From positions 391-11,305 of the forward strand of contig RDNZ01000064.1 in assembly GCA_011364905.1 (NCBI GenBank): 10,915 nt of DNA. Reading direction: 5' to 3'. A program made the translations under genes and the position numbers. The notes beneath the pieces were generated by a model. That model made no database searches, was not told the DNA's origin, and worked only from the letters and a program-made list of their open reading frames with translations. The DNA comes from Candidatus Thorarchaeota archaeon. Its GTDB lineage: Archaea > Asgardarchaeota > Thorarchaeia > Thorarchaeales > Thorarchaeaceae. Shown here piece after piece: positions 7,511 to 9,885 of the stretch; position 1 is the first letter of the stretch; each line of letters starts with the position of its first letter.

Positions 7511-7620
7511 TTACTCACCTGACCGGTATTTTCAGTCCATACCCAAAAGACATTCATTCCCGGACGGACTCGCCATGAAACCTGATGTGGTCAAATGGCT
7601 CTCTCGCCCATGCCCTGGGT
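7511..7620 (-). promoter_or_regulatory. Putative structured 5' leader of the rpoD-rps2 operon
   Basis: Nested pairings on the minus strand: ACCCAGGGCAT/ATGTCTTTTGGGT, GGGC/GTCC, GCCAT/ATGGC, GACC/GGTT. The element begins ~25 nt after a TTTTATG TATA-like box. Confidence 0.55.
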
Positions 7621-7642
7621 GTCTTGGCCTGTTTTCCCTAAA

Positions 7643-7650
7643 CATAAAAG
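7643..7650 (-). promoter_or_regulatory. TATA-like box for the rpoD operon
   Basis: CTTTTATG on the minus strand; implies a TSS near 7620. Confidence 0.5.
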
Positions 7651-7690
7651 GCTTGTCCTACGGCTAGGGATTCTACTGAGTCGTGATTTC

Positions 7691-7701
7691 GGAAGGAAAA
7701 A
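7691..7701 (-). terminator. Pyrimidine-tract (archaeal-type) terminator after the small GTPase
   Basis: TTTTTCCTTCC begins 7 nt after the GTPase stop codon on the minus strand. Confidence 0.4.
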
Positions 7702-7707
7702 CGAGTA

Positions 7708-9413: not shown

Positions 9414-9421
9414 TTTTAAAA
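9414..9421 (+). promoter_or_regulatory. TATA box for the rpl7ae operon
   Basis: TTTTAAAA; implies a TSS around 9443-9446, which is where a hairpin begins. Confidence 0.55.
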
Positions 9422-9480: not shown

Positions 9481-9506
9481 TACCGATGAAGAACTGAACT
9501 GAGGTA
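9481..9506 (+). promoter_or_regulatory. Kink-turn in the rpl7ae 5' UTR overlapping the Shine-Dalgarno (L7Ae autoregulatory site)
   Basis: TACC-GAT-GA-AG-AACTGAA-CT-GA-GGTA: C-stem TACC/GGTA, 3-nt bulge, tandem G.A/A.G pairs, NC stem AG/CT. The 3' strand contains SD GAGGT, 8 nt before the ATG. Confidence 0.8.
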
Positions 9507-9513
9507 GAAATCA

Positions 9514-9885
9514 ATGCCAAAGCCAAGTTTTGTAGAATGGGAGCCTACTGAGGAACTTCAGAAGAAAGCCCTAGAGGCTCTAGAAATAGCAAAGGACACA
9601 GGTCGTATCAAGAAAGGGATCAATGAAGCAACGAAGAGCATTGAGCGTGGTATTGCACGTTTGGTGATTGTTGCAGAAGATGTTGAACCCCAAGAAGTGA
9701 TTATGTATTTACCGGGTCTCTGTGATGACAAGAAGGCTCCATACATCTTTGTGAAGAGCAAAGCGGACCTTGGAAACGCTGCAGGTATCGAACGACCCAC
9801 AGCCGCTGTTGCAATCATTGTTGATGGTAAGGCTAAGGAACTAGTCGATGATCTTGTCGAGAAGATAAATGGCCTTCGAAAGTAA
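9514..9885 (+). CDS. rpl7ae: 50S ribosomal protein L7Ae (eL8)
   Basis: TGRIKKGINEATKSIERG, LVIVAEDVEPQEV, LGNAAGI. Confidence 0.97.
   Translation: MPKPSFVEWEPTEELQKKALEALEIAKDTGRIKKGINEATKSIERGIARLVIVAEDVEPQEVIMYLPGLCDDKKAPYIFVKSKADLGNAAGIERPTAAVAIIVDGKAKELVDDLVEKINGLRK

Follow-up and report, generated by a model that had tools for sequence, protein, structure and literature searches.

A family-specific structured leader RNA with a k-turn-like core in front of the rpoD operon of Thorarchaeota

The stretch in front of rpoD in a Thorarchaeota genome contains an 80-nt nested hairpin that, given its conservation and covariation in relatives, is a structured RNA far beyond chance. This leader is specific to one Thorarchaeota family, and its core carries the sequence signature of a k-turn, in which the kink itself and the sheared geometry of the G-A pairs are putative. 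We favour, with moderate confidence, the explanation that the element is a protein-binding regulatory 5' leader of the rpoD-rpl18e-rpl13-rps9-rpoN-rps2 mRNA, with L7Ae as the leading candidate for the bound protein. It belongs to a known kind, namely structured 5' leaders with a k-turn-type site that precede genes of the translation or transcription machinery, while its architecture, its 4-nt bulge, its target operon and its lineage are new. To our knowledge, very few cis-regulatory RNAs have been found in archaea, and none is described for Asgard archaea in Rfam or in the literature that we searched.

The window, by which we mean the whole 10,915-nt stretch of DNA analysed, carries on its minus strand the gene order rpoD-L18e-L13-S9-rpoN-S2, running from 7510 down to 4600 as determined from Pfam matches and ORF positions. 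The ORFs from rpoD to S2 abut or overlap, which indicates a single operon. The leader region is the 197-nt gap between rpoD and the GTPase ORF behind which it lies, and the genes flanking it are as follows.

9514-9885, plus strand: l7ae (L7Ae), about 2 kb from the rpoD leader
8220-7708, minus strand: ORF of an Arf-like small GTPase (Pfam), directly upstream of rpoD
7510-6710, minus strand: rpoD (Rpo3, with a 4Fe-4S domain; Pfam), the first gene of the operon

It had been proposed that rpoD, which normally follows rps11, here heads its operon, and both halves of this statement hold. In the loci examined from four other Asgard lineages, 17-54 nt separate rpoD from the end of an S11-type ORF in front of it. 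In the genome of the window the S13-S4-S11 cluster lies on a separate contig (L142, contig C50) and ends with S11, and the gene that follows S11 is a convergent one of 444 aa, which confirms the break of the ancestral S11-rpoD junction. The Arf-like GTPase adjoins rpoD upstream in all inspected loci of the family (L001-L026, L122-L141) and in the sister family, and thus occupies the slot held by rps11 in other Asgard lineages. The element sits where this lineage split rpoD from S13-S4-S11, and it may show how a control element is born when an ancient operon breaks.

Positions within the leader, all on the minus strand, are listed below from the promoter to the Shine-Dalgarno sequence (SD).

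7658-7644, minus strand: archaeal promoter, with BRE-like GGACAA at 7658-7653 and TATA box CTTTTAT at 7650-7644; conserved in leaders
7620, minus strand: predicted transcription start, a purine after a pyrimidine, from promoter geometry; the first base of P1
7620-7610, minus strand: P1 5' strand ACCCAGGGCAU (ACCCA-GGGCAU), pairing with 7553-7541; 98-99% of cells paired
7609-7606, minus strand: 5' strand GGGC of P2, the C helix, pairing with GUCC at 7569-7566; invariant, 99.5% paired
7605-7600, minus strand: bulged strand of the core, the 4-nt bulge GAGA (7605-7602) followed by G-A (7601-7600)
7599-7595, minus strand: 5' strand GCCAU of P3, the NC helix, pairing with AUGGC at 7576-7572
7592-7579, minus strand: apical hairpin P4, GACC-ACAUCA-GGUU; the sequence varies and the pairing is kept
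7578-7570, minus strand: internal-loop UC (7578-7577), P3 3' strand AUGGC (7576-7572) and non-bulged G-A (7571-7570)
7569-7566, minus strand: C-helix 3' strand GUCC, invariant except for four C-to-U changes
7565-7554, minus strand: junction strand J, GUCCGGGAAUGA (UCCGGGAA), 12-13 unpaired nt on the 3' side only
7553-7541, minus strand: P1 3' strand AUGUCU-UU-UGGGU with a conserved UU bulge; near-invariant
7540-7521, minus strand: 20-nt linker from P1 to the SD, its 5' half variable across the family
7520-7515, minus strand: SD AGGUGA, conserved in most leaders and complementary to the 16S 3' end GGAUCACCUCCU of the same genome

The TATA-like box, the outer stem, the inner motif and the GACC-ACAUCA-GGUU cap that the first-pass annotation had described were all found on the minus strand where it had placed them, the TATA-like sequence being CTTTTATG at 7650-7643. 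Across 81 distinct leaders, CTTTTAT at -30 to -24 and AA at -34/-33 are near-invariant, and T occupies both -28 and -27 in every one. A purine stands at +1 in all 81 of them and a pyrimidine at -1 in 73, and each of the 42 leaders measured has 30-32 nt between its TATA box and the outer stem's first C. By classical archaeal promoter spacing, the first transcribed base would be 7620, at the foot of P1, and we infer from the sequence that the transcript start and the first base of P1 coincide; the predicted start is well upstream of ~7560, the downstream limit that the first-pass annotation had set for a start compatible with a leader. The DNA upstream of the BRE, back to the GTPase stop codon, is unalignable among relatives. 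Conservation sets in sharply at the BRE/TATA and ends at UGGGU, beyond which lie a variable linker and then a conserved SD and start codon.

The element spans 7620-7541 on the minus strand and is ordered P1, J, P2, a k-turn-like loop, P3 and P4. RNAfold returned this nested fold from the single sequence, and RNAalifold, applied to a MAFFT alignment of 42 copies, recovered P1, the C helix, P3 and P4. Folding 7620-7541 by itself gave -30.8 kcal/mol and z = -2.34, with 4 of 200 shuffles equally good, whereas z weakened to -1.55 for 101 nt and to -0.73 for the 140-nt span (7511-7650). The expectation that the sequence would fold better than shuffled controls thus holds modestly for the 80-nt element and hardly for the longer span, and with z values this small the energy by itself is weak evidence. 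Two details of the pairing allow more than one register. The tandem GUCC-GUCC (7569-7554, minus strand) permits two C-helix registers via GGGCG, of which the single-sequence minimum-energy fold adopts the non-k-turn one and the alignment consensus the k-turn one; one subclade has AUCC as its second repeat, where most leaders have GUCC. For the U or C at the top of the P1 5' strand, two partners fit the data, namely the start of the P1 3' strand and the base after GUCC.

Comparison among relatives provides strong evidence for an RNA structure. We used two alignments, the MAFFT alignment of 42 copies and one of 55 distinct copies that was fitted to the covariance model and is hence biased towards the structure. 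In the former, 95% of cells were paired, against 20-51% in slid controls, and the covariation score was 0.28, against at most 0.11 in slid controls. In the latter, the corresponding values were 95.5% against 25-49% in slid controls, and a score of 0.30 against 0.175 in the shuffled control. None of 500 shuffles matched the observed score in either case. Compensatory changes were seen at 7-8 pairs in the MAFFT alignment and at nine pairs in the 55-copy alignment. In P1, two C-G pairs become U-A and the top pair goes from U-A to C-G, with an extra C-G to U-A change in leader L267; in P3 three of the five pairs are compensated (for example, C-G in 27 and U-A in 21), and in P4 all four, with a loop variable in both length and sequence. 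The C helix, the G-A pairs and the junction strand are invariant and so have no covariation support of their own. The structured RNA proposed by the first-pass annotation is therefore borne out as conserved and covarying, with nine compensated pairs and 95.5% of cells paired in the 55 copies, and it is kept across the family.

Some leaders depart from this pattern in P1. In genus g25 (17 species; L279-L294) the P1 3' strand reads GUGUUUUGGG in place of GUCUUUUGGG (GUGUUUU versus GUCUUUU), a change that breaks G9-C91 and leaves a G-U run; the middle of P1 thus tolerates irregular pairing. Only L054 (1392-1476) and L070 (1388-1467) carry CUC, not CCC, at the P1 5' end; both also have GAG as its P1 partner and an A at the centre of the junction GGG, a three-way coordinated change (C5-G97). 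Since the two leaders are related, it represents a single evolutionary event. Pairing between the 5' CCC and the junction GGG, considered as an alternative, has this one coordinated change in its favour but is mismatched in at least three leaders (up to seven with four mis-parsed rows).

These comparisons also bear on whether the conserved stretch acts as RNA at all. Much of the element is invariant, as a constraint on the DNA would also produce, so that an operator or other promoter-proximal DNA site could be imagined, or simple chance; with nine compensated pairs, a strand-specific stability and many G-U pairs, which are C-A mismatches on the opposite strand, we consider this reading barely credible. 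The same G-U pairs identify the strand of rpoD as the functional one. An RNA from the opposite strand was rejected because of these pairs and of z = 0.07 for the reverse strand of the 80-nt element. A small ORF, ATGGGCGAG..., was rejected as well, since it would encode 3-6 aa and loses its ATG in CAC variants, as was a SECIS-like element (AUGA/GA core), since the standard code leaves every ORF of the operon open and the element occurs only once per genome.

We compared the rpoD loci of 24 congeneric genomes and of more distant Thorarchaeota, built a covariance model from the alignment and searched Asgard genomes with it. The model matched the window's own genome exactly once and likewise each of the 26 genomes sampled from its family, whereas 124 genomes representing 26 other Asgard families gave no match. 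Extended to the whole family, the search found exactly one match in 84 of 86 genomes, covering 16 of 16 genera; both genomes without a match are 74% complete. In every inspected locus the element lies on the rpoD strand, 23-35 nt before the rpoD start. Searching the rpoD loci of the sister family and of the four other Asgard lineages with filters off yielded noise only. As the sister family has the GTPase-rpoD order without the element, the element must have arisen after that split.

That the leader RNA is undescribed, as had been suggested, agrees with a comparison of 7511-7707 with Rfam 15, which gave zero matches even at E values up to 10. A tRNA/tmRNA scan detected none, and a full-text literature search for k-turn or leader RNAs in Asgard archaea or Thorarchaeota returned nothing relevant. 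A scan of metagenomes was run with a pattern that proved too loose, and among the matches listed 0 of 80 loci fit the model. Elsewhere in the window, 2676-2728 on the plus strand gave a sub-threshold Rfam match to sR14, a C/D-box sRNA (25 bits against a gathering threshold of 38; E = 0.0024); it lies inside a long ORF, has AUGAUGA-like boxes and no clear CUGA D box, and is probably due to chance.

We then examined the internal loop against published k-turn rules. Among the 55 distinct copies, G18, G22 and A23 on the bulged strand are present in all and A19 in 52, while the two middle bulge positions vary; G68 and A69 on the non-bulged strand are likewise present in all, and the C-G pair closing the C helix and the G after the bulged-strand G-A are also invariant. 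The Watson-Crick-type helix expected 5' of the bulge is there (GGGC/GUCC, that is, C-G, G-U, G-C, G-C), as is the NC helix after the G-A pairs (P3, 5 bp). All 55 aligned copies have a bulge of 4 nt (G-A-N-N), not three. Because the k-turn bulge is described as 'most often three' nucleotides (PMC5061560), the fourth nucleotide is a deviation rather than an exclusion. The k-turn-like motif with a 4-nt bulge noticed in the single sequence thus stands, its GA/GA, C helix and first NC pairs being invariant in 55 of 55 copies. At the flanking positions, -1b:-1n is C-G and 3b:3n is G-C. A Watson-Crick pair at 3b:3n, G-C especially, prevents folding in metal ions alone (PMC5061560), so by the published folding rules the core would not be expected to kink in Mg2+ alone and would need a protein.

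Conservation in the element is centred on P1, the junction strand, the C helix and the GA/GA core. The junction strand has the consensus R-UCC-GGG-AA-NNN, its R-U-C-C-G-G-G-A-A being 75-100% conserved at each position, and is partnerless in the model. In the 55 copies neither the apical nor the inner internal loop is conserved, and the apical hairpin has only to stay helical. Conservation focused in this way is what one would expect of a protein-binding platform and not of a tertiary fold built from a loop and its receptor.

This pattern has to be weighed against a plainer function at the 5' end. Archaeal 5'-end-dependent decay involves 5'-3' exonucleases of the aRNase J / aCPSF2 type, and a hairpin at +1 could act as a constitutive 5'-terminal stabiliser that shields the operon mRNA or fixes its translation rate with no feedback. 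P1 lies at the predicted +1 in all copies, leaving no single-stranded 5' tail, the SD is not occluded, and the element is always present and single-copy, all of which such a stabiliser would share. It would have no need, however, for an invariant GA/GA loop, for the G-A that starts the bulge or for a near-invariant 9-nt junction strand; these features indicate specific recognition, and we regard pure stabilisation as unlikely.

The same junction strand could instead belong to an element that senses a ligand or RNA polymerase, either a riboswitch or an attenuation/antitermination leader, with the k-turn used for packing and the U4 run for pausing or termination. K-turns are architectural in several riboswitches (PMC4316175). 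Both the UU bulge and the junction strand show high conservation, two C-helix registers are available through GUCC-GUCC, and one three-way coordinated change couples P1 to the junction strand. Yet the element is a single unbranched hairpin whose loops are unconserved and thus offer no partner for a loop-receptor contact or pseudoknot; the U4 run, short by the standard of archaeal terminators, falls within a covarying helix; and the alternative pairing amounts to that one evolutionary event, with mismatches in at least three leaders (up to seven). We therefore consider a sensing element improbable.

The stretch from P1 to rpoD has no U-tract, and the sole U4 run is followed by further covarying pairs of P1, so the functional RNA reads through into rpoD. 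This matters for the suggestion, raised together with that of a leader, that the element is an independent RNA. Such an RNA would be an independent or processed k-turn RNP RNA of ~80-110 nt, released from the rpoD transcript and acting in trans. It would account for a promoter of its own at a fixed distance and for a compact fold with a k-turn-like site, comparable to many archaeal sRNPs, and processing might take place at the U4 run and the conserved linker. Against it, P1 is followed by no terminator-like U-tract, the element is always 23-35 nt from the rpoD start with the SD in between, and rpoD has no second promoter. Neither box C/D nor H/ACA hallmarks were detected in the element: it has no D box (GCGA occurs instead) and no conserved ACA after P1. 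Its inner region is a covarying plain hairpin with an internal loop on the 3' side only, giving a one-sided pocket, an unconserved apical loop and no evident guide. A released small RNP RNA is thus rather improbable, and the reading as a protein-binding 5' leader of the operon mRNA is the one we pursue below.

How such a leader might act on translation was addressed by examining the linker. Including the SD, the distance from P1 to the start codon is 23-35 nt across the family; in the window the SD lies 21 nt past P1 and 49 nt past the non-bulged G-A and is not inside the k-turn helices. The family consensus of the linker is ACCUCC-RC-GGUCA-GGUGAG, the window's subgroup being without ACCUCC, and 53 of 80 leaders have an anti-SD-like ACCUCC about 8 nt upstream of the SD. 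Linkers of genus g25 contain CACCUCC, identical to the 16S 3' tail. The first-pass annotation had proposed a switch in which GGUAU (7543-7539) pairs with AUACC (7529-7525) or, alternatively, UACC pairs with GGUG of the SD (7519-7516). Both complementarities are present in the window, but the hairpin is not conserved: close relatives have AUAAC, AUUAC or AUAAU, and the sequences of other genera are unrelated. In partition-function calculations on 54 leaders with 100 shuffles each, the mean unpaired probability of the SD was 0.34, compared with 0.36 for shuffled linkers, and the window's own SD gave 0.54, compared with 0.47. Linker-driven sequestration of the SD is therefore unsupported, accessibility being no lower than with shuffled linkers across the 54 leaders, and so is the switchable SD pairing, whose hairpin is confined to the window sequence. 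What remains of the earlier interpretation is an undescribed, covarying leader at the rpoD promoter, and what has to be given up is its SD switch.

As to the protein, the likeliest candidate is an L7Ae-family member, with L7Ae itself ahead of L30e. The nearby l7ae gene, which had drawn attention to L7Ae, was discarded as evidence: its proximity is ordinary synteny, and Asgard genomes that lack the element keep l7ae ~6 kb from rpoD. Each sampled Asgard genome at least 90% complete has at least two PF01248 genes (one has three), so that none of these genes tracks the element, and among them we found no family-specific L7Ae/L30e paralogue that does. The l7ae gene has a leader of its own. At 9481-9513 on the plus strand a canonical k-turn hairpin, ACC-GAU-GA-AG / loop / CU-GA-GGU, precedes its ATG (9514), and its non-bulged strand is the SD GAGGU, as in the autoregulatory sites published for L7Ae; a TTTTAAAA box stands further upstream, at ~9414-9421. 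The rpoD element is unlike this site in bulge length, in size and in its distance from the SD.

The junction strand might perhaps be read by a product of the operon, which would then bind alongside an L7Ae-family protein or in its place. The element does lie in the 5' UTR of a ribosomal-protein operon, as autoregulatory ribosomal-protein leaders do. We compared it with the 16S rRNA of its own genome and the 23S rRNA of two congeners, using k-mers, local alignment, motif scans and, for two 23S regions, Rfam structure lines. No convincing match that would suggest mimicry of 16S or 23S sequence emerged from these comparisons, in which the naive k-turn scanner was too permissive. The 16S match was a 10-mer that is absent from the other subclade. 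In the 23S rRNA, the GGCGAAGAGCC match is a pentaloop hairpin according to the Rfam structure line, and the Kt-15 region shares GCGAUGAG only.

Taken together, these features suggest a mechanism in which the transcript would begin at the foot of P1 and a protein would recognise the GA/GA core plus the junction strand, fixing the kinked fold. The bound RNP at the 5' terminus would then sit at the upstream edge of the ribosome landing zone, where it could lower initiation on rpoD, and on the downstream genes by translational coupling, or could alter mRNA stability or decay from the 5' end. The output of RNA polymerase assembly subunits and ribosomal proteins would thereby track the free RNA-binding protein. 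More speculatively, the element may be an Asgard-specific RNP switch in which free L7Ae or another k-turn reader, acting with the junction strand, locks the fold at the 5' terminus and so throttles Rpo3, Rpo10, L18e, L13, S9 and S2 jointly, a proposal that we offer tentatively and think doubtful as it stands. Such a switch might use a relay linking three GGU segments (P1 3' end, linker and SD) with two CC-rich ones (the 5' end and ACCUCC). If true, it would be the first archaeal feedback tying synthesis of the transcription machinery to the status of ribosome or sRNP assembly. The 4-nt-bulge GA/GA core beside a conserved single strand is in any case a natural k-turn variant of interest for protein specificity, and the element is a short, single-copy and testable candidate with promoter, fold and operon defined. 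Since these organisms are uncultured, its function can be tested only in vitro or in heterologous systems.

Among known systems, the closest are the L7Ae-controlled mRNAs. L7Ae represses mRNAs via k-turns in their 5' UTRs, and its known operators are small hairpins with a GAU bulge and with the SD inside or next to the helices (PMC5539422, PMC6298567). Like the autoregulatory k-turns of Sulfolobus acidocaldarius and Archaeoglobus fulgidus, the rpoD element lies in an archaeal 5' UTR before genes of the translation machinery, has a purine-rich bulge followed by tandem G-A/A-G and a C-G pair at -1b:-1n, and has a Watson-Crick pair at 3b:3n, which predicts protein-dependent folding. In contrast to those sites, which are small and unstable, have a 3-nt GAU bulge and stand before l7ae, the element stands before rpoD, and its 4-nt bulge is part of a stable fold of 80 nt that includes a long P1 and the conserved junction strand. 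The L7Ae-responsive translational operators (Daume 2017; Huang 2019) have the SD or start codon in the hairpin or next to it, where the bound protein covers it, whereas the SD of the rpoD leader is 21 nt away.

With the bacterial S4 leader of the alpha operon and the L13 leader of rplM-rpsI, the element shares a structured 5' leader at the head of an operon, a mixture of an RNA polymerase assembly subunit (the homologues RpoA and RpoD) with ribosomal proteins including L13 and S9, and a lineage-restricted, single-copy occurrence. It has no sequence or Rfam kinship with them and is a k-turn-type hairpin, not a pseudoknot.

The k-turn sites of yeast RPL30 pre-mRNA, the U4 5' stem-loop and box C/D RNAs are bound by L7Ae-family proteins. 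The element resembles them in its asymmetric purine-rich loop with tandem G-A pairs, and its bulged strand, R-U-G-A-G in most copies, recalls box C (RUGA) and the AAUGAG found in U4. It differs from these sites in having one extra bulge nucleotide, G-C instead of U-U at 3b:3n, GCGA rather than the CUGA of box D, no guide regions and a cis-regulatory context.
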